Shown piece after piece: positions 2-63,273 of a stretch of 64,000 nt of DNA (position 1 is its first letter; each line of letters begins with the position of its first letter). The notes under the pieces are model-generated. The model saw nothing but the letters and a program-made list of their open reading frames with translations. It was not told the origin of the DNA and did no database searches. Source of the stretch: an uncultured virus (IMG/VR IMGVR_UViG_3300024999_000046) (Duplodnaviria > Heunggongvirae > Uroviricota > Caudoviricetes); the IMG/VR virus record IMGVR_UViG_3300024999_000046. One strand, 5' to 3'. The translations under genes and the position numbers were made by a program.

Positions 2-160
2 ATGTTTAAAAATTACCAAGATAAAATAATATTAAAGAATAATTATTACCAATCTAGGGTTGATATAATTTTTATAGATTTATATCCATATGACTTAAAA
101 AATAATTGTGAAGGCGTAAAGAATAAATTAACTGAAGTTTTATTAAGTTTAAATAAATAA
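2..160 (+). CDS. 3' end of a CDS cut by the window edge, possibly a Vsr/DUF559-like nuclease C-terminus
   Basis: Open frame ..FKNYQDKIILKNNYYQSRVDIIFIDLYPYDLK..LNK* read by hand. Confidence 0.4.
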   Translation: MFKNYQDKIILKNNYYQSRVDIIFIDLYPYDLKNNCEGVKNKLTEVLLSLNK

Positions 161-18246: not shown

Positions 18247-18262
18247 TTTTATATTTGTTACA

Positions 18263-18293
18263 AGAAAAGACCATTATTTAAAATGGTCTTTTT
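18263..18293. terminator. intrinsic terminator
   Basis: aaaagaccatt-attta-aaatggtctttttt. Confidence 0.75.
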
Positions 18294-18377
18294 ATTTTAA
18301 GTTAAATTTCTTTTGATTGCATTTTCCTCCACTTTAGTATATTCTTATTACAGAAAAAGTAAAGGGAGGAAAATTTA

Positions 18378-19808
18378 ATGAAAAAATTATTAACTATTAT
18401 CACATTATCTCTTGCTCTATTATTCACATCTATTGTTCCAGTGTTTGCAACAGGAGATAATTTAAATTCCAACCAAACATTAGATATGGCAATCTTAAAT
18501 AGCACGAACTCTTCTTTTGATATTTATGAAAGTGAACCGAATGACATAAGAGATGAAGCAAACAAAATTCAGCTTAATAAAAAAATTCATGGAGAAATAA
18601 ATGGCCGATGGGAAGATGATTATTATGAGATCGTCTTAACAAAAAATGAGAATTTAACAATTATTGGATCTATGGTTCCTAATCCTCATATACAGTCAGA
18701 TTTAACTAATGATTTTTTATTATATTTAAGTAATAGTGATACTGAAGATATTGGATGTAGCGAATTAAAAATAGATGATGTTACAGGAGTTTTAACTCAA
18801 GAATTAAGAATTAATGTAAATGCTGGCACTTATTATATTGATGCATGTCAAACTGTAAGTTGTGTTGGTGAAAAATATGTGTTTACAGTAAATGGTACTA
18901 AGGCAATAAAAGTATCTAAAGTTAGTTTAAATAAGAAAACAACATCTCTAAATTTAAGAGATTTTGAAACATTAATTCCTACAGTTTCGCCTCCCAATGC
19001 AACAAATCAGAATACTACTTGGAAATCAAGTAAAACATCAGTAGCGACAGTTGACTCAAATGGTAAAGTTGTAGGCGTAAAAGCTGGAACAGCAGTTATC
19101 ACAGTAACAACAGTGGACGGTAAAAAGAGAGCTACCTGTAAGGTTACAGTGAATAATATTCCTTCCACTGAAATTTATGAAAATGAACAAAATGATGAAG
19201 AGTCTAATGCAAATATTATTCAACTAAATAAAAATATTCATGGAGAAATTAATGAATCAATGGATTTTGATTATTATAAAATTAATTTTCTGAAAGATGG
19301 TAATTTAACAGTTTTAGGATCAATGGATAATGGGGAAGGGAATTCCAGTTTTCAATTATGTTTAGTTGATAGTAATTTGGAAGAAATAGGTTATAGTTCA
19401 GATGTATTTATAAATGATAAAATTACTGGACAAGAATTAAAATTCAAAGTAAATACAGGAACTTATTATATTCTTGCGGTTCAATGGAATGATGATTGTA
19501 TTAATGCAAAATATTCATTTATTGGAAATCTTATTTCTTCTTCTGATCTAAAAGAATTAAACGCTAGCACAACTTCATTAAATATGAAGCAAGGTGCAAG
19601 CAAAGAGATATCTCTTATAGCAACACTTATAGATAAAACAATAAAAGATGTATCATTAGATGCTACATGGGTTTCTAACGATACAGATGTTGCTGTAGTT
19701 GATATTGTAGATAGGACTGTAATAATAGATGCAATTTTAAAAGGATCTGCTGTAATTACTGGTGAATATTTAGGTAAAAAAGTAAGTATTAAAGTTACAG
19801 TTATGTAA
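18378..19808 (+). CDS. secreted protein with two PPC-like domains and Big_2 Ig domains
   Basis: Signal peptide; duplicated YE.E.ND...AN.IQLNK.IHGEIN..D.YY; Big_2 motif. Confidence 0.8.
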   Translation: MKKLLTIITLSLALLFTSIVPVFATGDNLNSNQTLDMAILNSTNSSFDIYESEPNDIRDEANKIQLNKKIHGEINGRWEDDYYEIVLTKNENLTIIGSMVPNPHIQSDLTNDFLLYLSNSDTEDIGCSELKIDDVTGVLTQELRINVNAGTYYIDACQTVSCVGEKYVFTVNGTKAIKVSKVSLNKKTTSLNLRDFETLIPTVSPPNATNQNTTWKSSKTSVATVDSNGKVVGVKAGTAVITVTTVDGKKRATCKVTVNNIPSTEIYENEQNDEESNANIIQLNKNIHGEINESMDFDYYKINFLKDGNLTVLGSMDNGEGNSSFQLCLVDSNLEEIGYSSDVFINDKITGQELKFKVNTGTYYILAVQWNDDCINAKYSFIGNLISSSDLKELNASTTSLNMKQGASKEISLIATLIDKTIKDVSLDATWVSNDTDVAVVDIVDRTVIIDAILKGSAVITGEYLGKKVSIKVTVM

Positions 19809-24029: not shown

Positions 24030-24167
24030 ATGAATGTAGTTGTAGAAAGTCCTATAAAAATAGGAACTATGGCAAAAATGAGACAGATGGCACAAGAAGC
24101 AATGAAAGCAAAAGGTATGAATGAGAAGGATGTCAGAAAGATATTGGGTATTAAGAAATATGAGTAA
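24030..24167 (+). CDS. small putative antitoxin
   Basis: RBS ggagga, 45 aa, overlaps PIN gene start. Confidence 0.5.
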   Translation: MNVVVESPIKIGTMAKMRQMAQEAMKAKGMNEKDVRKILGIKKYE

Positions 24168-24606
24168 AATTAAAGTAGTTGCAGATACTAATATTTTTAT
24201 CAATTCATGGTTTTCTAGCAATCATTTTTATTGTGACGCAGTAATTGATCTAATAGACAACAAAAAAATTGAATTGGTTTTCTCGCAGGATACCATTGGA
24301 GAATTGTTTTATGTAGTAAAGAATTTTGTTTATCATGCTTTTAATGATAAACAAATCCAATTTGAATATATGCATATGTTATCTGAAATATTTTTTGAGT
24401 CAAGTTCGGTTAATACATCTAAAACTGAATGTCCAAAGATTAAAGATAGTTCAGATGAAATGTTTTTAAAAACAGCGATTGAAAGCAATGCTGATTATAT
24501 TGTTAGCGATGATAAGGAAAGTGGTATGCATATTGTTAAATTAGACAGTATAAAAATTGTCAATTCTAAACAATTTGTTTCAATGTATGAAAGATTATGT
24601 GTTTGA
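24160..24606 (+). CDS. PIN-domain toxin (VapC-like)
   Basis: KVVADTNIFI..EL..DSSDEMFLKTA..ADYIVSDD. Confidence 0.85.
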   Translation: MSKIKVVADTNIFINSWFSSNHFYCDAVIDLIDNKKIELVFSQDTIGELFYVVKNFVYHAFNDKQIQFEYMHMLSEIFFESSSVNTSKTECPKIKDSSDEMFLKTAIESNADYIVSDDKESGMHIVKLDSIKIVNSKQFVSMYERLCV

Positions 24607-45736: not shown

Positions 45737-47959
45737 ATGTTAATTAGTAAAGAAGTTGAGGTAGAATTATCAGGTACTAATATAGAATACTTTGAGAATA
45801 AGGGGTATTTTATACCAAGACGAGTAGACAAACAAGGGAGAACAAATGTTAAAAGAGGGACAAAAATAATTGTAAAGGTTGAAGACTTAAAAGATAATTC
45901 AGATGTGTTAGTTAGTGTTCAATGTGATGATAACGGAGAAATATTAGAAAATGTAGAATGGAAAGTTTATAAATACCATGTAAAAGAAGATGGAAAATAT
46001 TATTACAAACCTCATAATAATTCATCTAGAAAAATAAGTAAAAAATATTTAGGAAGAGGTTTGTCGTTTTATGATTGGTGTTATAAATACCTACCAAAAT
46101 ATATGGCAGATTATATACTATCTCGTTGGGACTATGAGAAAAATATAGATAAAGAAGGAAATATAATAAGTCCTAAAAATGTTGGACATGGTTCAGATGG
46201 TTTTGATAAAAAGAAAAGAGGTTATTGGTTTAAATGCCTCGATCATCCAGAGCATGGGTCAGAATTGAAAAGCATTTGTCGTTTTACTAATAATTTTAAG
46301 GGTTTTATGGGTAGTATTGAATGTATTCAGTGTAACGTTGTTGCATTAACTCATCCCCATTTGGTGAAGTATTTTGCTATTAAAGAAGATGCTTATAAGT
46401 ATTCTTTTGGTTCAAGTGAAATTGTTCTTATGAAATGTCCTGATTGTGGTTGTGAAAGAGAAATTAGAGTTAGCGATTTATCAAACAAGGGATTTTCGTG
46501 CAGAATTTGTTCAGATAAAATTCCTTATACTGAAAAGTTTTTTGCTAATTTCTTAAAACAAATATTACAAGAAAATTATATAATGCAATTATCAACAAAG
46601 ACTTTCAAATGGTGCGATAGGTATCAATATGACTTTTACATAGATAAAATGAACGGAATCATATGTGAAATTATGGGTAATCAGCATTATGAAGAAAATC
46701 ATGGTAATTGGAAAATGTCATTAGATGAAATACAAATTAACGATTTTGACAAGGAATGGTTAGCTAGAATAAATAAAGTTAAAAACTACATAATCATTGA
46801 CTGTAGAAAGTCGGAAATGAAATGGATTAAGAGAAGTATCATGCAGTCAAGATTACCAAAACTTTTAAATTTTAAAGAATCAGATATTGATTGGTTAGAG
46901 TGTCATGAGGCAGGATGTAAAAATATGATCAAGGAAGTTTGTGACTTGTATAATGACACTCGTAACGTATTAAAAATTTCTGAATTATTTAAAATAGGAA
47001 CTCAAACCGTTGGTAAATATCTCAAGCAAGGAGCAGAATTAGGTTGGTGTGACTATAATTCAAAAACAAGAGTCGTGTGCGTGACAACGGGAGAAGTTTT
47101 TGAATCACAAACAGAAGCAGGTAAGAAATATAATACCACTGGGATCTCAAAATGTTGCAGTGATAATGATATTAGAAGAACAGCAGGTAAATTATTGGAC
47201 GGTACAAAATTAATTTGGATGTTCTACGAAGAGTATATTATGAAAACAAAAGATGAAATTGAAAATATATTAAAAGAAGAATTGGAAGAACCGCATGGAA
47301 TGGTAATCAAAGTTATTTGTTTAACAAATGGAGAAATATTTAGCACAATGACTTCTGCTGCTGAAGAATATAATATATCATACAATAGTATATCTTCATG
47401 TTGTAGAAAATCAAGTTTTTCAGCAGGAACTGACTTGATTACAGGTAAACCTTTAGTCTGGATGTATTACGATGAGTATGTTTTAAAAACCAAAGATGAG
47501 ATCCAAAGTATATTGAATAATAAAAGAATTAAAACAAGATTTAAAGGAGAAATAATTTGTTTAACAACAAGAGAAACATTCAATGATGTCTATGAAGCCG
47601 GAATTAAATATAATATACGAGCAGATGCCATATCATTTTGCTGTGATAAAGATAAAACTAATAAGTCAGCAGGGAAACTTTCAGATGGAACAAAAATGGT
47701 TTGGATGTATTATAAGGATTATATATTAAAAACCAAAGATGAAATAGAAGAGATTTTACTGCCTAGTAATTTTGTTAAGGTAATATGTTTAACGACTGGA
47801 GAAATATTTAATTCTTTAGCAGAAGCACAAAGAAAATATAAGAATGCATCTCATATAGGGCATTGTTGTAAAGGTAAAGCAAAATCATCAGGAAGTTTGT
47901 TAGACGGAGTAAGACTCACATGGATGTATTATGATGAATATTTAGAAAGTAATAAATAA
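45737..47959 (+). CDS. Zn-ribbon / PD-(D/E)XK (Vsr-like) endonuclease with four NUMOD1-like repeats
   Basis: YDFYI..ICEIMGNQHY; four copies of (V/I)C(L/V)T.GE.F..CC..AG..WM(Y/F)Y. Confidence 0.75.
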   Translation: MLISKEVEVELSGTNIEYFENKGYFIPRRVDKQGRTNVKRGTKIIVKVEDLKDNSDVLVSVQCDDNGEILENVEWKVYKYHVKEDGKYYYKPHNNSSRKISKKYLGRGLSFYDWCYKYLPKYMADYILSRWDYEKNIDKEGNIISPKNVGHGSDGFDKKKRGYWFKCLDHPEHGSELKSICRFTNNFKGFMGSIECIQCNVVALTHPHLVKYFAIKEDAYKYSFGSSEIVLMKCPDCGCEREIRVSDLSNKGFSCRICSDKIPYTEKFFANFLKQILQENYIMQLSTKTFKWCDRYQYDFYIDKMNGIICEIMGNQHYEENHGNWKMSLDEIQINDFDKEWLARINKVKNYIIIDCRKSEMKWIKRSIMQSRLPKLLNFKESDIDWLECHEAGCKNMIKEVCDLYNDTRNVLKISELFKIGTQTVGKYLKQGAELGWCDYNSKTRVVCVTTGEVFESQTEAGKKYNTTGISKCCSDNDIRRTAGKLLDGTKLIWMFYEEYIMKTKDEIENILKEELEEPHGMVIKVICLTNGEIFSTMTSAAEEYNISYNSISSCCRKSSFSAGTDLITGKPLVWMYYDEYVLKTKDEIQSILNNKRIKTRFKGEIICLTTRETFNDVYEAGIKYNIRADAISFCCDKDKTNKSAGKLSDGTKMVWMYYKDYILKTKDEIEEILLPSNFVKVICLTTGEIFNSLAEAQRKYKNASHIGHCCKGKAKSSGSLLDGVRLTWMYYDEYLESNK

Positions 47960-47962
47960 TAG

Positions 47963-48004
47963 TATAGAGGATATCTGCTTTAATTGTAGATATCCTCTAT
48001 TTTT
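47963..48004. terminator. terminator between convergent genes
   Basis: tagaggatatctgc..gtagatatcctcta-T run. Confidence 0.8.
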
Positions 48005-48010
48005 ACCGTT

Positions 48011-49552
48011 TTACTTAACTTCTTCCCTTCCAATTTCTTCTAAACTTTTACCTTCTAAAATGTATTCATTAAATACCTTATTAACCCAAGTTACTGAAGA
48101 AGAAGTCGAAATCATTTTGTTTCCCTCTCGCATTATTTTTCTGAAAATAGGATTTTCTTTATCTAGGAAATTTCCTATAAATCCTCTGTAATTCACTTTG
48201 GAATTAAACTTAGAAAGTATACTTAACATCTCTTCTTTGCTCTTTCCTTGCAATGATTTGGAAATATAAAAATACCCACTCCAAGCAAGGGCTTCCATTG
48301 TGAGACTATTTTCGCGAAGAATTTTTCTCTCTATAAGATCCTTACTTGCCATAAATTTAGGAAAGTTTTGAATTATAGCATCTACAAAAGCTATAAGATG
48401 TTTGCTACACTCTTCAACGTCTATCTTTGTTTTTGGATTATAATTATCTTTAATATTTTTTGAAAGTACACCAAATGTGATAATATTTTCTGAGGTAGCT
48501 TTAATGGATGTGCTTACTACCTCTACCTTTAAGTCAGATTTTTTCATAACATCTCTACATAATTTGTTTGTATAATCTTCTACATTTAAATATTCCCCAC
48601 GGCTACGAGAAATTTTTAAACCTTTAGTTGCGTATTCAGAGAATAGACTTTTTGCTGAATCGTCATCTAATAATTCGATTACAATTCCAATTTGATAATC
48701 AGCAGGATTAGGAATTGTCTCTGGTGATTTACGATAAGCCTTTAAAACCTTCAAAAATGCAGAAAGTCTGTGTTGCCCGTCTAAAATATCCAACTTTTGG
48801 TCAATAGAACCAGAAAGGGTACGCTCATCTTCATCATAATTAATATCACCCTTTTCAGGATTCCAATTAAATGTTATGAAACCACCATGCATCTTATTTT
48901 TAATAATACTTGAGTAGATCAAATCGATTTGCTTCTTTGAGCGTACAGCTAATAAATCTCCGTTTTTCCCTTTGCGATAGCCTCTTTGAAGCTCTCCATT
49001 ATAAGAAAGTACACCTCGTTCAAAAAGAGCACTTAATACTTCGATATTTGCAACTCCTTGGTATTTTACTAATTCATTATTTCTAAAAACCTCGATTACG
49101 TTATCAAATTTCCATTCCTCCGAATTATTCAATTTTTCCAATCTACTTTTCATTTCCTTCTTCAATTTGTTTTGCTCACGTTTAATTTTTAACTCATCTT
49201 TTTTCCTTTGAGCTTCATTCCTCTCTTCTTCAGTTTCATCTTCACCACTAAAATCAGTTTCTTCTTTTACCTGTCCACTTAAACTACTCAAACTACCAAA
49301 AGGAGGCATCACCTTCTCACTCTCAACCTCTCCGTCTTTACTCCCTTTATCCCAAACCTTATCATTCTCATCCAAAATCTCATTGAACCCAACAGCAACT
49401 TGACTTTGAGTTTCATTTACCATCCCCATCACCTCTTCCTTCACAGCATTAACTAAACCAATATCCATCTGTGCAAACCTATCCTTCTTCTTAGCCATTT
49501 CATTATCTCCTTCCATATTCATGTTTCCACCTTTATCAAATTTAAAAATCAT
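48011..49552 (-). CDS. DGQHR (DndB-like/ParB-fold) domain protein
   Basis: YNGELQRG and ILDGQHRL; acidic low-complexity N-terminus. Confidence 0.8.
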   Translation of the reverse strand: MIFKFDKGGNMNMEGDNEMAKKKDRFAQMDIGLVNAVKEEVMGMVNETQSQVAVGFNEILDENDKVWDKGSKDGEVESEKVMPPFGSLSSLSGQVKEETDFSGEDETEEERNEAQRKKDELKIKREQNKLKKEMKSRLEKLNNSEEWKFDNVIEVFRNNELVKYQGVANIEVLSALFERGVLSYNGELQRGYRKGKNGDLLAVRSKKQIDLIYSSIIKNKMHGGFITFNWNPEKGDINYDEDERTLSGSIDQKLDILDGQHRLSAFLKVLKAYRKSPETIPNPADYQIGIVIELLDDDSAKSLFSEYATKGLKISRSRGEYLNVEDYTNKLCRDVMKKSDLKVEVVSTSIKATSENIITFGVLSKNIKDNYNPKTKIDVEECSKHLIAFVDAIIQNFPKFMASKDLIERKILRENSLTMEALAWSGYFYISKSLQGKSKEEMLSILSKFNSKVNYRGFIGNFLDKENPIFRKIMREGNKMISTSSSVTWVNKVFNEYILEGKSLEEIGREEVK

Positions 49553-49653
49553 CTCAAATCAACCCTTTCATATAATATATAATCATTTTATGACTTTCGC
49601 AAGTTTTTATCACATATTTATGAAATTTTATTAAAAAAGATGAGCATGTCCAA

Positions 49654-50211
49654 TCACTCATCTTTAAACTCATCAATATTCTGTGGTAAATATTTATTAG
49701 CATCAAAATCGGATACGTCATCCATTTTATAACTCTTAATGATATCTAAATTTTTATTTACAAAATCCATTGGATTGTAGCAAATTCCCCCTTTTCGATA
49801 CTCAAAATGACAGTGGATTCCAAAACTCCTTCCTGAATTTCCTGAGTTTGCAATAACATCTCCTTGCTTAACTTTATCTCCAACCTCAACTAAATTTTCA
49901 CTATTATGACCATATAATGTTTCTACATTATTATTGTGTAATATCATAATACAATTGCCATATACTCCTTTCCATCCAGAAAACGAAACTATCCCATCGT
50001 TTGATGCATGAATAGAAGTTGTCCCACAGCCTATATCAATTCCATGATGCTTATCACCTTTAAACTCTTGAGTAATTACTCCCTCTACAGGCATAATCCA
50101 AGTATCGCTTGAATCATTATATAAATGCTTCCTACTACATATATAAATCAACAAAACCATTACAATAATAAAAAATTTATTGTTCCTTAATGTATCCATA
50201 ATAATACCCAT
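49654..50211 (-). CDS. membrane-anchored M23 metallopeptidase
   Basis: N-terminal TM; HHGIDI, YGH, HCHFE. Confidence 0.9.
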   Translation of the reverse strand: MGIIMDTLRNNKFFIIVMVLLIYICSRKHLYNDSSDTWIMPVEGVITQEFKGDKHHGIDIGCGTTSIHASNDGIVSFSGWKGVYGNCIMILHNNNVETLYGHNSENLVEVGDKVKQGDVIANSGNSGRSFGIHCHFEYRKGGICYNPMDFVNKNLDIIKSYKMDDVSDFDANKYLPQNIDEFKDE

Positions 50212-50214
50212 AAA

Positions 50215-52587
50215 TCACACTCCCTTTATAGGAGCAGGTAATTTAGTAATAAACTTTGCATATCCTTCTTTGCATTTGATTAAATTCAAACTATGATACC
50301 TTGGTAGTTTTAACAAATCTTCCATTTCATAAGGTTGAAGTTCATCCTTTAATTCATTGTAATTTTGCTTATCACAACCTGATAATAACATATAGCTTGC
50401 GTTTGCACTTCTTAATTCATCTCTAATTCCTTTTATTTGATTGAGATAATGACATGATATAATAGGTTTAAGCCGGAATTTAGCGAGTCTCGATAATTTA
50501 TCTGTTAAAAATAATTCTGTATTATTTACTTGATATAATTCATCAATAAATAGATTGACCTTGACTCTATCTCCTTTATCTCTAAATTTTTCTGCTCTTA
50601 ACTGTAACGACAACCATAATTTAGTCATCCAATAAGTGCAATATACATCTCTTTCTTCATCAGTTGAAAACATTGATTCTGGCATTCTAAGACAAATTAG
50701 TTGTGGTTTTTGAAGTTCATCAATTAAATTAATATTATCTTCAGTTCCTTTTTTCAACATTAATTCCATATAAGTATTTGATTTAAGTTTTTGCAAACGA
50801 TCTAAAATTCCAGTAATAAAACTAAATTTAGTGCCTACAAGATTTCCTTGTTTGTCATATTCATTAAGTTCGTCCAAAGCGATAATATATTCACCTAGAT
50901 TTTCTTTTTGATTTGATGGAATTTTACTCATATATCGTTCTCTTACTTTGTGATTAGTCAATACATCAAAAACAGATTTAATATTTCCATCTTGAATAAA
51001 AGTAATCAAAGAAGCCGAACACAACATTCTTTCCATTCTTGGAGCAAGAGTTTTTTCATCAGAATTTACAGAATTAATAAGGGTTAATAATTGAGTAGTT
51101 TGCTTTTTAGCATTGTCATATTGAATAAAAACATCAGAATCTATTCCTACTTCATTATAACCAAGTCCTTGAAGTTTGCTTATATCTCCACATTCAATAA
51201 TTTTAACTCTTTCTTCAGGAAATACACTAGCAATTTCCATTGATAATTCACAATTTTCAATAAAATCAAAAATTATACAGCATTCATTATGTTGCATAGC
51301 ATTTCGTGCAAGATTAGAAATTAGGACACTCTTTCCACTTCTTGTAGGGCCAACTAAGACTAGACATAACTGAGAATATTCTCTATCTGTACTAAGGAAT
51401 GCTTCCTGATGAATTCCTCTATACGTGTTTGTTCCTACACTCATTACACCAGTTCTTAAATCTTCTGGAACTTGAGTTTCCTGAGTATTGACTTTATCAA
51501 TAAAATTAAATCTATCAAGTATTTTTCTACCTGCTAAAGCAATAAAATTTTGACATTCTCCAGATGAAATTTTGTTGATTTCTGCTCCTTTTATAGAATA
51601 ATCATTAGGATTAAATTTTTGACTATAATACTTTGCTTTTAGAGAATTGCCACCATCCTCTTCATTTATCACTTCAAAACTTTGAGATAAACTTTTAACA
51701 TGATTAATTTCTCTTAATTTATCTATGCTTTCTGACAATATAATAATTTGAGTGTTTAATATAATATCTGTTGCTTTGGAATAAGTTGATTTACTGACTG
51801 CTGATTTGTTCATTCTCTCGATTACTCTCTCCATTTGTACCAAACTATCAGTTGATAATCCTTTCTTTTTAGATGGTTTTCCAGAAGTAACTTCTCCTAG
51901 TAAATCACTAATCTCAACAACAATGGAAACAATGATTTTACCTAAATACCATATATTTGCCTTTTGTCTGTCAGTTGGTAAACCATCTCTTACTTTTTGA
52001 ATCGTGTTTTTATACTCAGATTTCCATGGAAATTGATTAGTAGGAATAAAATTGTAGAATATCCCTACTTTATCACCATCCTCTAATACATCTATAACAT
52101 TAAGATTTGAACTAAGAAGTTCGCTACTACGCTTATCAATAGATAAACTAAGTGCATTTTCTTTAGAATAAACCAACTGATATTTTGTTGATTTTTCACT
52201 AAATAAAGGAATTGCATCAACTTCTTTAATAGTAACATTTGCCCATGAATCTTTAATCTTTTCTTTCAATAGTGATAAGTAATTTTTTGGAATAATAAAA
52301 TAGAATTCTACATTTTCTTTTTCAATAAAAATAAAATATGAAACTTTTTCTGGCAATTGATAACTGTATTTAGTTCCAACCATAAATTGTCTTTTAAATG
52401 GATATAGTTTAATTAATTTTCCTTCTTCTACTTTGATATGGCGAGATACACCTTGAAAGATTGTAGAAATTGATTTAGCAATTCGATCTGTACTTTTGTT
52501 TTCAATGGAATTATTTGGAGTTAATTTTAGATAGACATACTCAGGGTGAATAATTTCAAAATAATTACTTAATTTAATTCCTTTCAT
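50215..52587 (-). CDS. FtsK/HerA/VirD4-superfamily ATPase
   Basis: Walker A GPTRSGKS, Walker B LFIDELYQ; 790 aa. Confidence 0.8.
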   Translation of the reverse strand: MKGIKLSNYFEIIHPEYVYLKLTPNNSIENKSTDRIAKSISTIFQGVSRHIKVEEGKLIKLYPFKRQFMVGTKYSYQLPEKVSYFIFIEKENVEFYFIIPKNYLSLLKEKIKDSWANVTIKEVDAIPLFSEKSTKYQLVYSKENALSLSIDKRSSELLSSNLNVIDVLEDGDKVGIFYNFIPTNQFPWKSEYKNTIQKVRDGLPTDRQKANIWYLGKIIVSIVVEISDLLGEVTSGKPSKKKGLSTDSLVQMERVIERMNKSAVSKSTYSKATDIILNTQIIILSESIDKLREINHVKSLSQSFEVINEEDGGNSLKAKYYSQKFNPNDYSIKGAEINKISSGECQNFIALAGRKILDRFNFIDKVNTQETQVPEDLRTGVMSVGTNTYRGIHQEAFLSTDREYSQLCLVLVGPTRSGKSVLISNLARNAMQHNECCIIFDFIENCELSMEIASVFPEERVKIIECGDISKLQGLGYNEVGIDSDVFIQYDNAKKQTTQLLTLINSVNSDEKTLAPRMERMLCSASLITFIQDGNIKSVFDVLTNHKVRERYMSKIPSNQKENLGEYIIALDELNEYDKQGNLVGTKFSFITGILDRLQKLKSNTYMELMLKKGTEDNINLIDELQKPQLICLRMPESMFSTDEERDVYCTYWMTKLWLSLQLRAEKFRDKGDRVKVNLFIDELYQVNNTELFLTDKLSRLAKFRLKPIISCHYLNQIKGIRDELRSANASYMLLSGCDKQNYNELKDELQPYEMEDLLKLPRYHSLNLIKCKEGYAKFITKLPAPIKGV

Positions 52588-52599
52588 TTGATAACCTCC

Positions 52600-52842
52600 T
52601 CATCCTAGTAAATACTTAATCATGGCATAACTAACAGTAATAATACCTAATTTTTGAAGTCCTGATTTATATCCTCCAATATAAAGAATAATTAGAATTC
52701 CTCCTCCAACTAATGCAACGGCATGGGATACATATATGATATTTGAAATAATTCCTGTCATAATCCAATTAAAGCTTTCAGTAACACTTTCTTTTAATGC
52801 AGTTTTTATAGCAGTAGTAAACCAATCTGCGTAATTTACCAT
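52600..52842 (-). CDS. small membrane protein
   Basis: Two hydrophobic helices; operon with ATPase. Confidence 0.7.
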   Translation of the reverse strand: MVNYADWFTTAIKTALKESVTESFNWIMTGIISNIIYVSHAVALVGGGILIILYIGGYKSGLQKLGIITVSYAMIKYLLG

Positions 52843-53184
52843 TCACTTTAAACCTCCTATCATGGCATCGATTTGATCTAGGCCGTAAGGAAGTAATAGT
52901 AAAAGAGCATACATACCTAAGTAACTTAGAATTGTTTTCTTCGTTGCTTGGAAATCTCCGGCAAGGGCATGTTGAACTATTTCCAATCCTCCTTTAATTA
53001 AAATTACTGCCCTGCCAAGACCTAATACTTTCCTGTAAAATTGATCTGATGTTTGCTCAATTGTTGCTACTCCAAGGGCAACAGAAGGATCAATTAGGAC
53101 AATATAACCAATTATTAATCCTCCTTGTAAATATTTAATTCCATGCTTTTTTAAGTGAATTTTAATTGAATTTTTCTTTAACAT
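52843..53184 (-). CDS. small membrane protein, VirB2/TrbC pilin-like topology
   Basis: Leader ending SVALG/VA followed by two TM helices. Confidence 0.55.
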   Translation of the reverse strand: MLKKNSIKIHLKKHGIKYLQGGLIIGYIVLIDPSVALGVATIEQTSDQFYRKVLGLGRAVILIKGGLEIVQHALAGDFQATKKTILSYLGMYALLLLLPYGLDQIDAMIGGLK

Positions 53185-53323
53185 AAATTACCACTCCTTA
53201 CTTTAAGGAAATAGGATAAAAGAGTTCTAAATTGAATGTGTCGTGGCATATTGTTAGGTATAACTCGTTATGCCGAACAAATTTAGCATAAGTATACCCA
53301 ATTTTTATAATCTCATCTCTTTT

Positions 53324-53353
53324 GTATATTTTTTATGATTGTTGGTAATAATA
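53324..53353 (+). promoter_or_regulatory. sigma-F-type (forespore) promoter
   Basis: GTATA-15-GGTAATAATA matches the B. subtilis sigma-F consensus. Confidence 0.6.
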
Positions 53354-53384
53354 CAGTCATAATTAATTTTAAGGAGATGAGATT

Positions 53385-53471
53385 ATGCCATTAGTTGCAG
53401 GATTTTATGTCTTACTAGGAAGTGGAATGGTTTACTCAGGACTTTTAACATTAGCAAGTTTATTGAATTAG
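53385..53471 (+). CDS. 28-aa hydrophobic peptide
   Basis: RBS aaggag; MPLVAGFYVLLGSGMVYSGLLTLASLLN; followed by terminator aatcccc..ggggatt-T run. Confidence 0.6.
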   Translation: MPLVAGFYVLLGSGMVYSGLLTLASLLN

Positions 53472-53573
53472 GATTATATTGCCTCACCAAATCCCCACTA
53501 TTGGGGATTATTTTTTTGCTAATTTATAATAAAACATTCAAAACATAACCAAATTATCACTCAACAACTCCTT

Positions 53574-53822
53574 TTATTTCACTTTCCCTTGACCATAATC
53601 ATTCCATTCGTTTTCACAATCTTTACACACATAACCCCAATATCTTGGATCAATATCATTTAACTCAACATCACTACTTGAATCAATTTCATCAATGCTC
53701 TTATCTGCTAGGTTAATGTAAGCATGAGTAACAACTTGAGCATATCCTATAATATTTTTAGAACCACATTCAGGACATCCACTAGGAATTACAAAAGGTT
53801 TTCTTTTTAAAATTTCATCTAT
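53574..53822 (-). CDS. 82-aa Zn-ribbon protein with ATA start
   Basis: RBS ggagg then ATA; CPECGS..CKDC; absent from ORF track. Confidence 0.5.
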   Translation of the reverse strand: MDEILKRKPFVIPSGCPECGSKNIIGYAQVVTHAYINLADKSIDEIDSSSDVELNDIDPRYWGYVCKDCENEWNDYGQGKVK

Positions 53823-53845
53823 TCTCTTCCTCCTTAATTTAAACT

Positions 53846-54094
53846 TTACACCATCTCGTTCTCATCAATTCCTTTACTTAAATAATATGTCTCTCCATTC
53901 CCATCTCTCCTCCCCTTTTTGCAAATGTTAGCGATATAAAATGCTTTGATAATGTTCCTAACAATAAAATAACTTAATCCAGTTTTTTCTGATAATGTTG
54001 ATATTTTCATAGCATTCATATCATTAGTGATATTTGATTCCTGAAGAACTTGAAGAACTTTAATCTCTGATTTATTGAGTTTATCAGTTAGCAA
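53846..54094 (-). CDS. winged-HTH protein
   Basis: LNKSEIKVLQ.L..ISTLSEKTGLSY..G.RDGNGETYY. Confidence 0.65.
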   Translation of the reverse strand: MLTDKLNKSEIKVLQVLQESNITNDMNAMKISTLSEKTGLSYFIVRNIIKAFYIANICKKGRRDGNGETYYLSKGIDENEMV

Positions 54095-54403
54095 TGCCTT
54101 GTGACCTCCTTTGTGTGATGTTGATATGTTTAATCTTTATTAGTGGTTGATTGTCTAATATGTTAGTTAATTTATCCCAAATATTCTTGTCAAACATAAT
54201 CGTGAGTATACCAATTGTTTACCAGAATACCAAGGTATACTTTTGTCATAGTTGTATACCCTAGAAAAAGAAAACCCTCCAATTCTCAGAACTATATACC
54301 AACATAAACAAACTTGTCCTATTATACATATATACATTTGCATACCTACGTTTATCTGTAAATATATCTGTCTACAAATGTATATCTACCTACAACTGAA
54401 AAC

Positions 54404-54432
54404 TTGTAAAAGTACACAATTAATGATACACT
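54404..54432 (+). promoter_or_regulatory. sigma-A promoter of the parM operon
   Basis: TTGTAA-17-TACACT with extended TG. Confidence 0.6.
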
Positions 54433-54472
54433 ATCTCACATACATTAAAATATTATTAAGGGGGATTTAAAA

Positions 54473-55459
54473 ATGAATGAGATGAACGAGATGAACGATG
54501 AAGAAATATTAGGTCTTGATGCAGGAAATTCATACTACAAAACCAGCACCGGCGTAGTATTAAGAGCAAGAATTAAGTTTAATACTGAGGGTGATGGTCT
54601 ACTCAAAAGCAATACTTACCTAGTTAAAAAAGATGGTTTAAGTCATCTTGTAGGAGATCCAGAAGGAAAAATCTATATCAATCCAGATAAATACACCACA
54701 ACACATTTTGATTTATGTACATTAACTTCTATTGCTTTAAGTTTTCCAGACTGTAAAGATATTAAAGTAAAATTAGTAGTTGGTACTCCTGCTGGCTACT
54801 ATAAGCAACACGCCACGGCCTATCTCGATAAGTTAAAATCTATGGGAGTTCAAACAATTAATATTGGTGATGGTAGAGGTAATATCAATATTGAAATAAC
54901 TGATTCTATTTGTTACATTCAATCTGGAATAACTGATTCTCAAAAAGGAAAATATGAATATCCCCTATTAGTTTTAGATTTTGGTGGAGGAACTTTAGAT
55001 GCTTCATTGTGGCGTAAAGGTGATGATATTAACCCTGAAAATACTGAAGTAATTTTAGATTCTAAAGTAAGTTATACTCAATTTGGTTTTGATCAAATAT
55101 TAGAGCAAATTACAACGACCTTTAATTCTAAAAATGGAACTAGGTTTAAACCTCATGAATTATTGCAATATCTTAAACGGTCAGAAATTACATTGCGAAA
55201 GCAAAGTTATGACTTAGAAAGGACAAAAGATGAAATTCTTATAGATTATATTGATAATGTAATTTCTTCTTTGGAAAAAACATTTGATTTGCAACAGGCA
55301 TTAGAAACCTGTGTCATGGGAGGCCCTGCAGAAGTAATATTACCTTATCTCAATATTAAACTTGATAATACGGCAAAATTATCTAGTGAACATCCTCAAT
55401 TAACTAATGCTTTGGCATATCTTGATGGTGGAAAGCAATATTGGGATATGGATGAGTAA
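54473..55459 (+). CDS. parM: ParM/StbA actin-like segregation ATPase
   Basis: GLDAGNSYYK, LVVGTP, VLDFGGGTLD, MGGPA, NALAY. Confidence 0.88.
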   Translation: MNEMNEMNDEEILGLDAGNSYYKTSTGVVLRARIKFNTEGDGLLKSNTYLVKKDGLSHLVGDPEGKIYINPDKYTTTHFDLCTLTSIALSFPDCKDIKVKLVVGTPAGYYKQHATAYLDKLKSMGVQTINIGDGRGNINIEITDSICYIQSGITDSQKGKYEYPLLVLDFGGGTLDASLWRKGDDINPENTEVILDSKVSYTQFGFDQILEQITTTFNSKNGTRFKPHELLQYLKRSEITLRKQSYDLERTKDEILIDYIDNVISSLEKTFDLQQALETCVMGGPAEVILPYLNIKLDNTAKLSSEHPQLTNALAYLDGGKQYWDMDE

Positions 55460-55461
55460 TT

Positions 55462-55830
55462 ATGGGTAGTTTAAGAAAATATGTTGGCACAAACCTTAGT
55501 TCAAAAAATGATAAAATCCTAATTGATTATGTAAATCAAATTGAAGAACAAGGAATTTCTAATTCGCAGTTGGTTAAAACATGTTTAAAGTTTTATATGG
55601 ATTATTATCCTAAAAAACTTAAACTAGATGAATTTAATGAAAAAATCACAGATAATATTGTATCAGGGAATATTAAGGTTTCTGTAAATAGTGTAAATCC
55701 AAGAAAAATTAGAAAGAAAAATGAAGTTATTGTGAATGAGATTGAAATAGTTGAGGAAACTACTGTGACTCCTGATAAAAAGAAAGATAGTATTTTTCTT
55801 AAAACTATGAACAATCTCATGTCAGAGTAA
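55462..55830 (+). CDS. ParR-like adaptor
   Basis: Directly after parM; RHH-like N-terminus (SQLVKTCLKFYM), low-complexity C-terminus. Confidence 0.6.
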   Translation: MGSLRKYVGTNLSSKNDKILIDYVNQIEEQGISNSQLVKTCLKFYMDYYPKKLKLDEFNEKITDNIVSGNIKVSVNSVNPRKIRKKNEVIVNEIEIVEETTVTPDKKKDSIFLKTMNNLMSE

Positions 55831-55932
55831 TTAATTTCATTGAATTTATAAAAGCCACACCAGAATACTTAATTGTATCTGAGTGTGGCTTATTTTTTTC
55901 TTATTAGTCTCCGGCCCAATAACTTATCAGCA

Positions 55933-56014
55933 TGTGGATAAAACTTTCTAAACATATATACCTGTGGACAAATTTCATGTATACTTAGAAGGAGAATTGT
56001 ATCAACCTGTCGAA
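55933..56014. promoter_or_regulatory. DnaA boxes and Spo0A box upstream of rep
   Basis: TGTGGATAA at 55933, TGTGGACAA at 55963, TGTCGAA at 56008. Confidence 0.6.
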
Positions 56015-56432
56015 TATATCTATTTAGTAACAGTCCAATATACAATAAGCAAACCCACTAGCCTTTGCAAGAGACTAATGGGTTCTGATCCAGCAAATGT
56101 TCATCACAACATTGCTTAGACTTCTTATATGATTAATTATAATCAAGTATAGAAAAAAATCAAGTCTATATTTGAGTAATAATTTAGTAAGTATTGTCAA
56201 AGTTGGTAGTGTGGTGTAGAAAATACATTGTGCTATCAACTTTTTTATTGGGCAAGACCACTAATTTAATAAGTAAATGCAAAACCCACCTATGATGCTG
56301 TGTCGGCAAACTCGACATCATAGGTGGGCAACAAGGCAAAAGTGTTTTAATCTCTTTTTAAATTATAACACCTTCTGCCTAGCATTGCTACACAATTTTT
56401 CAGAAAATGCTAGAAAGTAGTGATTAATTTTT

Positions 56433-57185
56433 ATGATGGATCTTATAATTGAAAATGAATTACCAATTGTTGTGCAACCTACTGTAGTTAATGTTTTTGG
56501 TCAGACCCAAGCTGAATTATTATCTCGTTTAAAATATTGGATGAATAGAGCAACAAAATATCGTGATGGTTTTCTGTGGGTATACAAGACTGTAGAACAG
56601 TGGGCCTCAGAACTCAATAAATCTACTAAAACAATTCAAAGAGCAATAAAGGATCTAGAGGATAAGAAAGTTCTTATTTCAGAACAATTTGAATCTAAAG
56701 ATTGGTATCATGGAAAATCATATAGAATTGATTTAGATGTATTATATATATTATTGGGAATACCTAAACCTTCAGATGTAAAATCAAATGAATCTAAACC
56801 TGTGGATAAAAAAAGACAAGATGTCCAAGAAGTTGAACAAAATGTCTCAATCATTACACTTAATACCACAATATCTAATAATGTATGTATGGATAAATCA
56901 GAAAAAGAAAATAAAAATGCAAAAGAAGAATTCTGGAAAGATGAAGATTGGCCTCTAATTAAAACGCTTGGGGATTGTCATATAGATCCGGATTCCAATT
57001 TTGCGATTACTGTTACTAAGATTGCTAAGGAATTAATGGTTAACGCAGACCAATTAAAGGAGGCACTTTACATATTATTTAATGCTAAATTTCATATTAA
57101 GAATCCATTTGGTTTTGTGAAAAAAGTTCTTAGAGATTTTATTTCAGGAGAAAGTGCATATTTTAATTATCATTATAAAACATGA
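56433..57185 (+). CDS. replication initiator protein (winged HTH)
   Basis: AELLSRLKYW..DGFLWVYKT.EQWASEL..S.KTIQRAIKDLE; internal DnaA box at 56801. Confidence 0.75.
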   Translation: MMDLIIENELPIVVQPTVVNVFGQTQAELLSRLKYWMNRATKYRDGFLWVYKTVEQWASELNKSTKTIQRAIKDLEDKKVLISEQFESKDWYHGKSYRIDLDVLYILLGIPKPSDVKSNESKPVDKKRQDVQEVEQNVSIITLNTTISNNVCMDKSEKENKNAKEEFWKDEDWPLIKTLGDCHIDPDSNFAITVTKIAKELMVNADQLKEALYILFNAKFHIKNPFGFVKKVLRDFISGESAYFNYHYKT

Positions 57186-57427
57186 AACATAAAAAGGAGT
57201 TCACAATGCAAAGATTAAGAACATGGGAGTTAAAAGAATGTAAAGATTCATATTTAGAATTAATTAATTCAGTTGAAGCAATGGAAATTCCAGTAAGCGA
57301 AAGAATGAAAGTTATTGCTAAAGAAATAGCAATAACCTCATATTTGAATAATTTAAAACCTAATTTAGAAAATTTTAAGAATAGGGTTATTAGGGAGAAT
57401 AGGATTATGAATAATTCTGATTGTTAA
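57182..57427 (+). CDS. hypothetical protein
   Basis: Overlaps rep stop codon. Confidence 0.5.
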   Translation: MKHKKEFTMQRLRTWELKECKDSYLELINSVEAMEIPVSERMKVIAKEIAITSYLNNLKPNLENFKNRVIRENRIMNNSDC

Positions 57428-57431
57428 CATT

Positions 57432-57881
57432 TTAACATCCATTACCACAAGCAAAATATCTCTCACTCACAATCCCATCTTCCATTTCTATAAATTCCTT
57501 TAAAGGCATTTTACATTCTGAACAGATACCTTCTTGTTTACAAAAATTCTCATATTCACTGGAAATATAGTCATAAACTGCATTTTGATCAAATAATTCT
57601 ATGAGTGGAATTTCCTTGTCAATAATTTTATTCCACATATCATCAGAAACTTCATATTCAAAATAGTCTTCGATGTTACTTTTGCAATTTATACAATTTG
57701 ACAATAATTTATTTTCTATTCCTACAGGAATATTTTTCATTAATGATAAATTGATTATGTAATCTGTATACGGTTCACACGGGTAGTCACATAGATTGAT
57801 TCGATTACATTTTATGTTTTCACAATAATTCATTGAATTCTCCTTTACAACAACTCTTTTGCCACATCTGTCCAATTCCAT
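57432..57881 (-). CDS. Cys-rich hypothetical protein
   Basis: Several Cys clusters; true start probably 57833. Confidence 0.55.
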   Translation of the reverse strand: MELDRCGKRVVVKENSMNYCENIKCNRINLCDYPCEPYTDYIINLSLMKNIPVGIENKLLSNCINCKSNIEDYFEYEVSDDMWNKIIDKEIPLIELFDQNAVYDYISSEYENFCKQEGICSECKMPLKEFIEMEDGIVSERYFACGNGC

Positions 57882-61554: not shown

Positions 61555-63273
61555 TTATATTTGAGATTTATATACTCTGTAAAGCATCCATCTTAATTTC
61601 TCTCCGGTTTCTGGATGTATTCCTGTATACTTTAAGTCTTGGTAATTTAAAATGGTATAAATACGATTGATATTATATTTATCACCTGCCTCTTTTAATG
61701 ATTCAAATATTTCTCCAGTAGTCAAGCAAATTACCTTATAATAATCAAAAATATTTTTCATATATGTATCTTTCCAACCTAAAATTTTGTTTTTAATTAT
61801 AAATTCATCATAATACATCCATATAAGATTTTCTCCTGTGTGTGGATGCACTCCAGAGGATTTATATACTCCTTTACAGCATTGTGAAATACTTGTAGTA
61901 TTATATCGTTTGTTTGCCTCATTTATATAATTGAATATTTCACCTGTATTTAAACAAATTATTTGTCTTCTAATTTTTTTAGCGTTTTTCATAAATTCTT
62001 TCTGTCCATTGTAATCACACCATTCTAATTTTTTTCCTTGTTCTAAATATCTTCTAATTGTCGCAGAACTCTTTTTTAATTTTACAGATATTTTAATAAT
62101 ATCTAACCCGTTATTCCATAAATCACAAGAAACTTTAACTAAACTTTTTAATCCTATTTCATGACATTTTAACCAATCAATATCTTCTTCTTTAAAATTA
62201 AGTAATTGTGGTAAATCAGAATTCATAATGCTATGCCTAATCCATTTAATATCAGACCTTCTACAATCCAATATTATGTAATTTTTAATATTATTACTTC
62301 TAGCTAACCACTCTTTATCAAAATCACTATTCTGCGTTTCTGTTAATGACCTCCAATTACTTTTTACTTCTTCATAATGTTGAATTCCATGAGTTTCAAT
62401 TATGCAATTAATTTTTTCTATATAGTTATCATATTTATAACTACCACACCATTTTAAAGTAGTTTTATTTAATTGAACTATAAAATCCTTATTTAATAAT
62501 TGCTCTAAAAATCCGAACAAAAACTTTTCTGGATATGAACCTCCATCTGAACATTTGGGACAACAAACTCCGTTTCTTATTAAATCATACATCGCACTCT
62601 CTTTTTCATATCCGCAATCGAGACATTTAATAGGTAATTTTCTTTCTGCAATAGAATATTTTGAAGCGTCTTCCTTATTGGTTAAATATTTTACTAATTC
62701 CGGATGAGTAATTATTATTTTATTGCATTGATCACAATAAATAAAATTTTTACTAAGATCATGTCTTATAGAATTGATAATGCTTTTTTGCTCTGATTTA
62801 TGTTCTGGATAATTTAAACAATTAAACCAATATCCTTTCCCATTTAAACCACGGGAATTAAAATCTATATCTTCAGGTCGAATTACATTACCATCCTTAT
62901 CAATATTTAACTCATAATCCCACCTTGATAAAATCCAATCGGCTAATTCTTTAGTTAATTTATAATAACACCATTGTTTAAAAGATAATCTAATGTTATT
63001 ATTTTTAATATTAACTGCACATTTTTGGCAGTAGTATTTACCATTGTTTTTACTAGTACTCCTTTTATAATAGAACCATTTTAAATTTATTATAGGTTTA
63101 TTACAATAGTCACCATCACATTTTATATTTACGAAAACATTTGAACCATCGGATAAATCTTCGACTTTAACTTCAAATTCATCTTTATATTTTGTAAATA
63201 TATGTCCTTTTGATTCATACCATTTTTTATTATTTGAACTCCATTTTGTAATTGCAACTTTATTTATTATCAA
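61555..63273 (-). CDS. Zn-ribbon / PD-(D/E)XK endonuclease with two NUMOD1-like repeats; paralog of 45737-47959
   Basis: Shared ILSRWDYE.NIDK.GN, DFDKEWLAR, LLNFKE.DIDWL.CHE. Confidence 0.78.
   Translation of the reverse strand: MIINKVAITKWSSNNKKWYESKGHIFTKYKDEFEVKVEDLSDGSNVFVNIKCDGDYCNKPIINLKWFYYKRSTSKNNGKYYCQKCAVNIKNNNIRLSFKQWCYYKLTKELADWILSRWDYELNIDKDGNVIRPEDIDFNSRGLNGKGYWFNCLNYPEHKSEQKSIINSIRHDLSKNFIYCDQCNKIIITHPELVKYLTNKEDASKYSIAERKLPIKCLDCGYEKESAMYDLIRNGVCCPKCSDGGSYPEKFLFGFLEQLLNKDFIVQLNKTTLKWCGSYKYDNYIEKINCIIETHGIQHYEEVKSNWRSLTETQNSDFDKEWLARSNNIKNYIILDCRRSDIKWIRHSIMNSDLPQLLNFKEEDIDWLKCHEIGLKSLVKVSCDLWNNGLDIIKISVKLKKSSATIRRYLEQGKKLEWCDYNGQKEFMKNAKKIRRQIICLNTGEIFNYINEANKRYNTTSISQCCKGVYKSSGVHPHTGENLIWMYYDEFIIKNKILGWKDTYMKNIFDYYKVICLTTGEIFESLKEAGDKYNINRIYTILNYQDLKYTGIHPETGEKLRWMLYRVYKSQI

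Follow-up and report, generated by a model that had tools for sequence, protein, structure and literature searches.

We describe a four-gene cassette in an uncultured member of the Caudoviricetes, represented here by 64,000 nt of IMG/VR record IMGVR_UViG_3300024999_000046 (this whole stretch is referred to as the window). The window comes from a large phage of siphovirus type, as its tape measure, tail, amidase and thymidylate synthase genes indicate. The tightly linked, co-oriented operon reported in the initial annotation is real: genes for two small membrane proteins (TM1 and TM2), an ATPase and an M23 peptidase all lie on the minus strand, with intergenic gaps of 0, 12 and 3 nt. The description of this operon as standing without a relaxase or a full type IV secretion system (T4SS) also holds, since a scan of the 52 window open reading frames (ORFs) gave no relaxase, VirD4 or VirB6/8 family match; no Pfam family of the complete conjugative T4SS (VirD4, VirB6/VirB8, relaxase) was found in the window, although divergent members could escape such a scan. 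The cassette is a relaxase-less, M23-bearing variant of one already known from phages, it is nearly confined to endospore-formers, lytic phages included, and it is in our reading a candidate device for bringing phage DNA into the forespore. The operon and the features upstream of it are as follows.

52843-53184, minus strand: TM1, putatively VirB2/TrbC pilin-like, 113 aa, with a leader, a conserved Ala38 and two hydrophobic helices
52600-52842, minus strand: TM2, membrane protein of 80 aa with two helices, in the VirB3 position; it has a basic G-x-K-K-G loop and in relatives is often an M23 fusion
50215-52587, minus strand: predicted VirB4-type ATPase (by model), 790 aa, soluble, PHROG 5156, of the SPP1 gp32 / SPO1 gp27.4 family
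49654-50211, minus strand: M23 peptidase, 185 aa, with an N-terminal membrane anchor and intact zinc motifs H55xxxD59 / H133xH135
53224-53254, plus strand: antisense sigma-E-type promoter motif GTTCTA-17-CATATTGT, conserved before TM1
53251-53299, strand not assigned: covarying hairpin (53251-53280), overlapping the sigma-E-type -10, with the conserved flank TTAGCA-4-TATACCC
53324-53353, plus strand: sigma-F/G-type promoter motif GTATA-15-GGTAATAATA, directed away from the operon
53385-53471, plus strand: unannotated 28-aa hydrophobic (membrane) peptide with an AAGGAG ribosome site, downstream of the sigma-F-type motif
53490-53509, plus strand: terminator-like hairpin ending the peptide transcript
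54133-54163, minus strand: candidate sense sigma-E-type promoter, ACATATT ... AATAAAGAT, with an imperfect -10, before a winged-helix gene

The ATPase matches PHROG 5156 (E 5e-77), and its profile finds SPO1 at E 1.4e-116 and SPP1 gp32 at E 8e-104. Walker A is GPTRSGKS at residues 413-420 and Walker B is D682-E683; residues G418, K419, D682 and E683 do not vary among the 95 aligned homologues, whose identities go as low as 21%. A model predicted from 95 homologues (pLDDT 91.7) aligns full-length to TrwK/VirB4 (E 3e-12). The earlier label, VirD4/HerA-like, is not the best assignment. On the predicted structures the ATPase is VirB4-type in both domains, not VirD4 or HerA, because the N-terminal domain modelled alone singles out TrwK/VirB4 (Z 14.3, rmsd 4.2 over 240 residues, against 8.6 for the next of 48,161 chains), while the C-terminal domain is about equally near VirB4 (Z 27.4, rmsd 3.4, 338 aligned), TrwB (26.2), DndH (26.1) and HerA (24.6). 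A VirD4/TrwB coupling protein was ruled out: no N-terminal hydrophobic segment was found, a 365-aa soluble VirB4-like domain is present, and the TrwB match is C-terminal only. A HerA helicase was ruled out as well, the N-terminal domain being VirB4-like and not a HAS barrel and the operon holding no nuclease gene. In a canonical T4SS, VirB4 builds the pilus, and VirD4 and a relaxase move the DNA. Compared with the VirB2-VirB3-VirB4 core plus VirB1 of such systems (R388 TrwK; Thermoanaerobacter VirB4), the cassette appears from the model to share the VirB4 fold in both ATPase domains, and it likewise places a pilin-like gene first and a small membrane gene second, with a wall hydrolase attached. 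Unlike that core, it is joined to ParM/TubZ and to sporulation-type motifs, its TM2 has no detectable VirB3 similarity, and no VirD4, VirB6, VirB8 or relaxase was found with it in the window.

The small membrane proteins are harder to place. The architecture of TM1, a leader peptide followed by a two-helix hydrophobic hairpin, fits VirB2/TrbC pilins; one of 59 family members matches Pfam TrbC (E 1.9e-4), the window protein itself having no Pfam match, and an Atlas neighbour at 0.89 is called 'TrbC/VIRB2', with TrbC on 17% of that neighbour's members. TM1 is homologous to SPP1 gp31.1 (E 2.8e-4), and a PDB sequence search with its profile gave no significant match. These slight indications suggest that TM1 may be VirB2-pilin-like. 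The likeness of TM2 to VirB3 is one of gene position alone, its 23 members yielding no Pfam family and no VirB3 family match, and SPP1 gp31.2 does not match the TM2 profile significantly (E 1.6). A second pilin-like subunit, rather than VirB3, is a reading of TM2 that its basic loop and the faint likeness between the TM2 and TM1 profiles (E 0.0054, probability 6.7%) would allow. The peptidase matches Pfam M23 at E 4.9e-28 and carries the zinc ligands (HxxxD plus HxH) expected of an active M23 endopeptidase.

To place the window operon among its relatives, 120 full-length ATPases were grouped into 68 clusters at 80% identity, and gene content was counted in the 62 clusters with at least 1.5 kb of upstream sequence; four distant phage loci were omitted from this count, and the TM profiles were built from these same loci. 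TM1 is present in 59 clusters, TM2 in 56, M23 in 30 and RHH in 29. The 30 M23 domains have intact motifs and comprise 26 M23-TM2 fusions, 2 TM2-M23 fusions and 2 separate genes, such that the peptidase, as the initial annotation had it, belongs to the module (fused to TM2 in 28 cases); M23 is an optional but real part. A co-oriented ParM or TubZ gene occurs in 27 of the 59 loci with enough flank. In SPO1 and CP-51 the gene immediately after the ATPase encodes a relaxase; a Replic_Relax scan of five records placed that family in SPO1 and did not find it in TP-84, PBC1, TPDSL_ph2 or G002, the last a complete, SPbeta-like relative of 166.7 kb whose ATPase is 85% identical to that of the window.

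The host range of the cassette ties it to sporulation. Across 50,697 phage records, with hosts taken from record names and duplicates included, the window ATPase matches 67, every one of them named for spore-forming genera or for the deep-sea thermophilic phage D6E; for SPO1 gp27.4 the same is true of 145 of 146 matches, and neither tally contains a staphylococcal, streptococcal, lactococcal, Listeria or enterococcal phage. The lone exception, Microcystis phage MaeS, has an annotated SleB and the same cassette. The MaeS locus (L152) also bears sporulation-type motifs, and its stated cyanobacterial host looks doubtful. All 45 genome loci with the ATPase are from Bacillota. Among 400 Bacilli genomes of a single sample (centre excluded), with spoIIIAE as the sporulation marker, the ATPase was found in 25 of 270 positive and 1 of 130 negative genomes (Fisher p 7e-4, uncorrected for kinship and genome size). 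The single hit in a spoIIIAE-negative genome is a weak, C-terminal-only match without pilin genes, beside a relaxase-like gene and a recombinase. That locus (L151 6275-9254, G069), in which ATPase, relaxase-like and recombinase-like genes belong to an integrative element, is a possible outgroup for the origin of the family. Because the cassette is carried by lytic SPO1, CP-51, TP-84, PBC1 and SPP1, it is not a part for lysogeny or plasmid maintenance; the limitation to episomal phages implied by the initial annotation does not apply, integrating relatives and lytic SPO1, SPP1 and TP-84 alike having the module. Its proposed link to sporulation, in turn, is supported, and more strongly than the initial annotation could show, by this host range and by conserved compartment-type promoter motifs.

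The first of these motifs is the antisense sigma-E-type element. The plus-strand CATATTGT noted at 53247 is indeed present, and is the -10 of an element that 29 of 60 loci share, by a partly tuned pattern, at 39-72 nt upstream of the TM1 start (shuffles 3.7, max 9; sense strand 4). Overlapping it is a hairpin found in 30 copies (median fold z -2.7), the stems of which vary in sequence and still pair: among 21 non-redundant copies, own arms pair at 6.5/7 positions as against 3.7 for swapped arms, and 20/21 copies pair at >=6/7 positions as against 4% for swapped arms. This covariation comes from an anchored script; RNAalifold on a MAFFT alignment of the hairpin gave no consensus pairs, because the stems are unaligned there. 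A terminator-like site follows hairpin and flank in 11 of 30 copies (opposite strand 1, shuffles 2.4); the window copy showed none. The promoter-hairpin unit is found in sense orientation elsewhere, TP-84, PBC1, MaeS and SPP1 being among these loci, and a less strict scan places it in 46 of 78 loci compared with 18 matches in 366 kb of control sequence. Judged from these sequence features, it is probably a self-contained unit, either a short sigma-E RNA or a cis-acting DNA site.

Several further observations concern this element. Rfam gave no match for it in the window or in 11 loci. A resemblance of its flanks (GCTAAG...TATGC) to the 11-nt tetraloop receptor was rejected, the TATG/TATT change being uncompensated, as was a MOBQ nick site in the antisense flank, the resemblance being limited to one Paenibacillus subgroup. 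An unannotated sigma-E-type promoter-hairpin-terminator unit lies before SPP1 gene 31 (L153 1036-1135, ~24035-24135). A perfect Spo0A-box pattern, TGCCGAA, lies within the window hairpin (53271-53277, plus strand) and is kept in most close relatives and lost in L014; across the family, Spo0A boxes show no enrichment ahead of operon heads (1/38 vs 1.2).

The second motif is of sigma-F/G type, with letter patterns drawn from general knowledge of these consensus sequences rather than from a paper. The sigma-F consensus reported upstream of the operon is present, and is the unique strict match on both strands of the 64 kb, but it is directed away from the operon. It is kept in seven close relatives, with changes at free positions, and stands before the 28-aa peptide. 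The unit of a sigma-F/G motif, a ribosome site and a hydrophobic ORF of 17-40 aa was found in 15 of 78 loci, on the antisense strand and no more than 1.6 kb upstream of the ATPase; the sense strand of these loci has 0 copies, and 2 occur in 1,262 kb elsewhere. Its carriers are mostly clostridial-type loci, and similar peptides with an imperfect -35 occur in TP-84 and SPP1. In SPP1 (L153 1463-1549, ~24460-24550) the region between genes 31 and 31.1 contains, in antisense, a hydrophobic ORF of 17 aa that has a -10 of sigma-F/G type. Among exclusion factors and type I toxins, small hydrophobic peptides are common, and an RNA made from the antisense sigma-E unit could regulate this one, as would suit a membrane module for superinfection exclusion or other host manipulation, an alternative to which we return below.

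The minus-strand string ATA-18-CATAATCT at 53408-53380, previously read as a sigma-E match pointing into the operon, does exist but is a coincidence: its CAT is the peptide ATG read on the opposite strand, and the remainder overlaps the peptide coding sequence and ribosome site. Single sigma-E matches are uninformative without comparison, because ATA-16..18-CATAnnnT is found 34 times in the window. Operon heads were therefore compared across loci, using the ATA (sigma-E), AC (sigma-K) and CATA -10 consensus given in the text of PMC3789822. Ahead of 38 operons headed by ParM, TubZ or RHH, a sense AC-16..18-CATAnnnT precedes 10 (shuffles 1.5, max 5; controls 8 of 258 upstream regions) and CATAnnnT precedes 22 (shuffles 9.4). 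Sense sigma-E-type sites also lie ahead of the cassettes of SPO1, TP-84, PBC1, MaeS and SPP1, none of which was used to derive the motifs, and, as judged by eye, a clearer site, ATA-17-AATAmRAT, stands at the place of the window sense candidate in L008, L009, L011 and L014. From these sequence patterns, sigma-E/K-type sites appear to head many operons of related loci. A sigma-70 scan gave 59 sites where 60 were expected.

Members of this family have been described before, under other headings. The SPP1 gp31/gp31.1/gp31.2/gp32 cassette is of the same family and gene order, with two small membrane genes directly upstream of the ATPase, and differs from that of the window in having no M23; PMC6316719 proposes a trans-membrane translocon, leaving its role unassigned. 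The main text of that paper treats the genes as early and does not contain the words 'sporulation' or 'spore', and the sigma-E-type sites, hairpin and 17-aa antisense peptide of SPP1 found here are not mentioned in the account consulted. The 'DNA translocation operon' of 0305phi8-36 (orf200-207) and SPO1 (gp27.3-27.9) shares the soluble ATPase, homologous to SPO1 gp27.4, and the membrane genes, and has an actin-like gene (PMC3357382). These operons differ in carrying a MobC/Replic_Relax relaxase, none of which was found in the window ORFs or in complete G002, with SPO1 as positive control. The same source terms the ATPase a VirD4-like coupling protein, and its main text has no word starting 'spor'. 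Similarly, the plasmid-like region gp11-gp18 of Tyrovirus, a large Bacillus phage, shares ParM, RHH and a type IV secretion ATPase; it includes a relaxase and is read as plasmid-derived, and 'sporulation' is absent from the main text (PMC9703825). Finally, spore entrapment via 0A boxes and par elements has the same outcome, virospores; there SPO1 ParM gp27.9 is named as a possible helper, host-derived segregation functions are invoked, and the ATPase and membrane genes are given no role in the account consulted (PMC12991052). No literature tying the ATPase cassette to forespore entry was found in open-access papers, a scope that excludes subscription journals, the SPO1 genome paper and supplements. 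The parts of the cassette are already known; added here are its near-confinement to spore-formers, with a control group, the peptide of forespore type and the unit of promoter and hairpin, which give the spore-entry idea a specific form that can be put to the test in SPP1 and SPO1.

Taken together, a device that moves DNA from mother cell to forespore fits best, because mother-cell-type motifs, a forespore-type peptide motif, a wall hydrolase, a filament and restriction to spore-formers coincide. Gene content, the VirB4 fold, the M23 fusion, host range, promoter-type motifs, peptide and hairpin form the basis of this reading; that the cassette transports DNA is something we infer. We consider the odds about even that a machine built by the mother cell delivers phage DNA into the forespore, with the peptide marking an occupied forespore. 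The fuller proposal, to which we give a probability of roughly 0.4, is that of a dedicated and widespread phage spore-entry machine: a reduced, intracellular T4SS without coupling protein, acting across the septum or the two engulfment membranes, governed by a mother-cell promoter-hairpin switch and shut by a forespore 'occupied' peptide, which would supply the missing active mechanism of virospore formation.

In such a scheme, mother-cell sigma-E/K would transcribe the operon, and a ParM or TubZ filament with an RHH or winged helix-turn-helix adaptor (co-oriented in about half of modules) would bring phage DNA to the septum or engulfing membrane. There, VirB4 would assemble the pilin-like subunits into a short conduit while M23 opens septal or cortex peptidoglycan. 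The DNA, nicked first in Replic_Relax lineages (SPO1), might then be driven through by VirB4 or handed to host SpoIIIE. After entry, sigma-F/G would make the small membrane peptide, which would stop further transfer or exclude other phages; we place its action after entry because a forespore promoter on a lytic phage fires only once the DNA is in the forespore. The sigma-E promoter-hairpin unit could serve as a mother-cell-specific mark or as a short RNA that regulates or loads the machine. Laboratory growth of 0305phi8-36 (PMC3357382) and of SPP1 (PMC6316719) does not require the cassette, in line with a job confined to sporulation.

A number of observations weigh against this proposal. VirB4 is normally an assembly ATPase; neither the window nor G002 (137 ORFs of at least 110 aa) gave a match to a VirD4, VirB6, VirB8 or relaxase family, SPO1 is the only one of the five scanned records with a Replic_Relax match, and many carriers adjoin integrases, so that the chromosome would take them into the spore. 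Of 62 modules, 32 have no M23, and the scan of 78 loci turned up no peptide unit in 63. Regarding expression, both well-conserved window promoter motifs point away from the operon, its sense promoter being a candidate picked by eye; strict ATA-type sigma-E sites are not enriched before operon heads (2/38 vs 1.0; loose 10 vs 8.4), and 22 TM1-headed operons show no sense enrichment. The count of antisense sigma-E-type motifs is partly tuned, the -35 alternatives having been picked after viewing these loci. Furthermore, the genomes compared are non-independent and those of spore-formers are larger, and the cassette may simply be inherited within phages of Bacillales and Clostridia. The SPP1 genes belong to the early PE5 unit according to PMC6316719, so transcription in growing cells is possible.

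The alternative that survives best, itself unlikely, is a septal anchor or protein-secretion device in place of a DNA pump: the VirB4-pilin assembly would mark the septum, or export phage proteins across it and so steer sporulation, with ParM or TubZ pushing DNA poleward before septation and host SpoIIIE doing the pumping. A pilus-assembly ATPase, the want of coupling protein or relaxase in most carriers and segregation filaments co-oriented in 27/59 loci would all suit it, and it shares the sporulation-type motifs; sigma-E/K timing, however, falls after septation, the ATPase domain is equally near the DNA translocases TrwB and HerA, and the relaxase directly after the ATPase in SPO1 and CP-51 points to a DNA substrate in that lineage.

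Less probable again is conjugation-like transfer of phage or phage-plasmid DNA between cells, timed to sporulating populations and borrowing a coupling protein and relaxase where these are lacking. The VirB2-VirB3-VirB4 order with a wall hydrolase resembles conjugation systems, SPO1-type operons do carry a relaxase (PMC3357382), and the ATPase matches 32 plasmid records, all Clostridium. Yet 31 of these 32 records are typed non-mobilizable, conjugation is of little use to lytic phages, the peptide has a forespore-type promoter, and the cassette is nearly absent from non-sporulating Bacilli and their phages, although such Bacilli conjugate freely. Distant ATPase homologues (about 24%) are found on large Clostridium botulinum/sporogenes plasmids of 150-275 kb, almost all of which are typed non-mobilizable.

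No more probable than transfer between cells is that the cassette moves no DNA and is the membrane exclusion or host-manipulation module mentioned above (superinfection exclusion, lysis delay in sporulating cells) or a decaying plasmid remnant: laboratory dispensability (PMC3357382, PMC6316719) and the reading of the Tyrovirus region as plasmid-derived (PMC9703825) would agree with it, against which stand the unchanging Walker A/B residues of 95 homologues, with identities as low as 21%, and the recurrence beside the ATPase of a partition filament, a wall hydrolase and, in some lineages, a relaxase.

The trapping of phage genomes in endospores is a decades-old question, usually credited to host segregation, and delivery by the cassette would offer a concrete candidate in two workhorse B. 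subtilis phages (SPP1 gene 32, SPO1 gene 27.4), in which the idea is testable because viable deletions are known. If correct, it would mean a type IV secretion system operating between two compartments of one cell and a route of long-term persistence for phages and plasmids in soil, sediment and gut; well-studied genomes would also gain a forespore peptide overlooked so far, along with a structured non-coding element.

Beyond the operon, the following neighbours deserve mention.

48011-49552, minus strand: DGQHR/DndB-like ParB-fold protein, 513 aa, relative of SPbeta YopQ; a clade-specific neighbour, not core
53846-54094, minus strand: winged-helix protein, 82 aa, PHROG 17403, upstream of the cassette and in the same orientation, both in the window and in 7/7 close relatives
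54473-55459, plus strand: ParM-like actin, divergent from the operon, forming a plasmid-type partition pair with the ParR-like gene
55462-55830, plus strand: ParR-like gene, partner of the divergent ParM-like actin

The DGQHR gene trails the M23 gene by 101 nt and had been proposed to encode a DNA-binding partner of the ATPase, a role we reject: it occurs in 1 of 62 clusters, among phages its relatives are the YopQ proteins of the SPbeta-like group (29 records), and SPbeta carries YopQ with no ATPase match. Membership of a Dnd phosphorothioation system was rejected too (26 bits vs a DndB equivalog cut-off of 328; no dnd genes nearby). The DGQHR gene is a passenger.

The window ParM/ParR pair is of a different subfamily from the co-oriented ParM typical of most modules and has no match in G002, whose own ParM is co-oriented; this divergent ParM is a doubtful candidate for the module's own filament. 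Close phages exchange maintenance modules in the slot 5' of the cassette (window 54473-57185; L008-L014), which holds a divergent ParM/ParR/Rep set in the window, L011 and L013, a serine recombinase in L009 and L014, and a ParA pair in L010 and L012. An episomal prophage is plausible here, given the divergent ParM, ParR-like and Rep-like genes in the window slot, but in close relatives a recombinase or ParA takes their place. The 82-aa winged-helix protein is possibly a DNA adaptor or regulator. Between it and TM1, an open frame at 53574-53825 (minus strand) would encode a CxxC zinc-ribbon protein of ~83 aa, with a good ribosome site and no ATG, GTG or TTG; an ATA start is possible. Zinc-ribbon homologues with normal starts occupy the same interval in L008, L010, L011 and L014, and likewise in L026, L040 and L091.

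Among related genomes, G002 carries MrpR, two DndB-family genes, an anaerobic ribonucleotide reductase and, beside the cassette, a serine recombinase. Its AgrB adjoins two PemK/MazF genes, DndB and MrpR, which suggests a peptide-signalling lysogeny switch. In L027, L029, L090 and L070 two multi-TM genes, one AgrB-like by eye, directly follow the ATPase, an arrangement that recurs in 12-13 Paenibacillus-type loci. One 85%-identical protein bears a spirochaete metagenome-bin label, probably through mis-binning. L103 contains an RT-14 RNA (595-736, Rfam RF02921) at the gathering score, adjoining an ORF that resembles a reverse transcriptase by eye.

Elsewhere in the window, a repeat search of 47500-57500 gave only chance-like pairs. 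Two large homing-endonuclease-like proteins of PHROG 4538, one with several tandem repeats, are encoded at 45737-47959 (plus strand) and 61555-63273 (minus strand), the gene ending at 47959 converging on the operon end. Two Ig-like (Big_2) proteins, one with leucine-rich repeats, follow the tail genes at 17440-19808.

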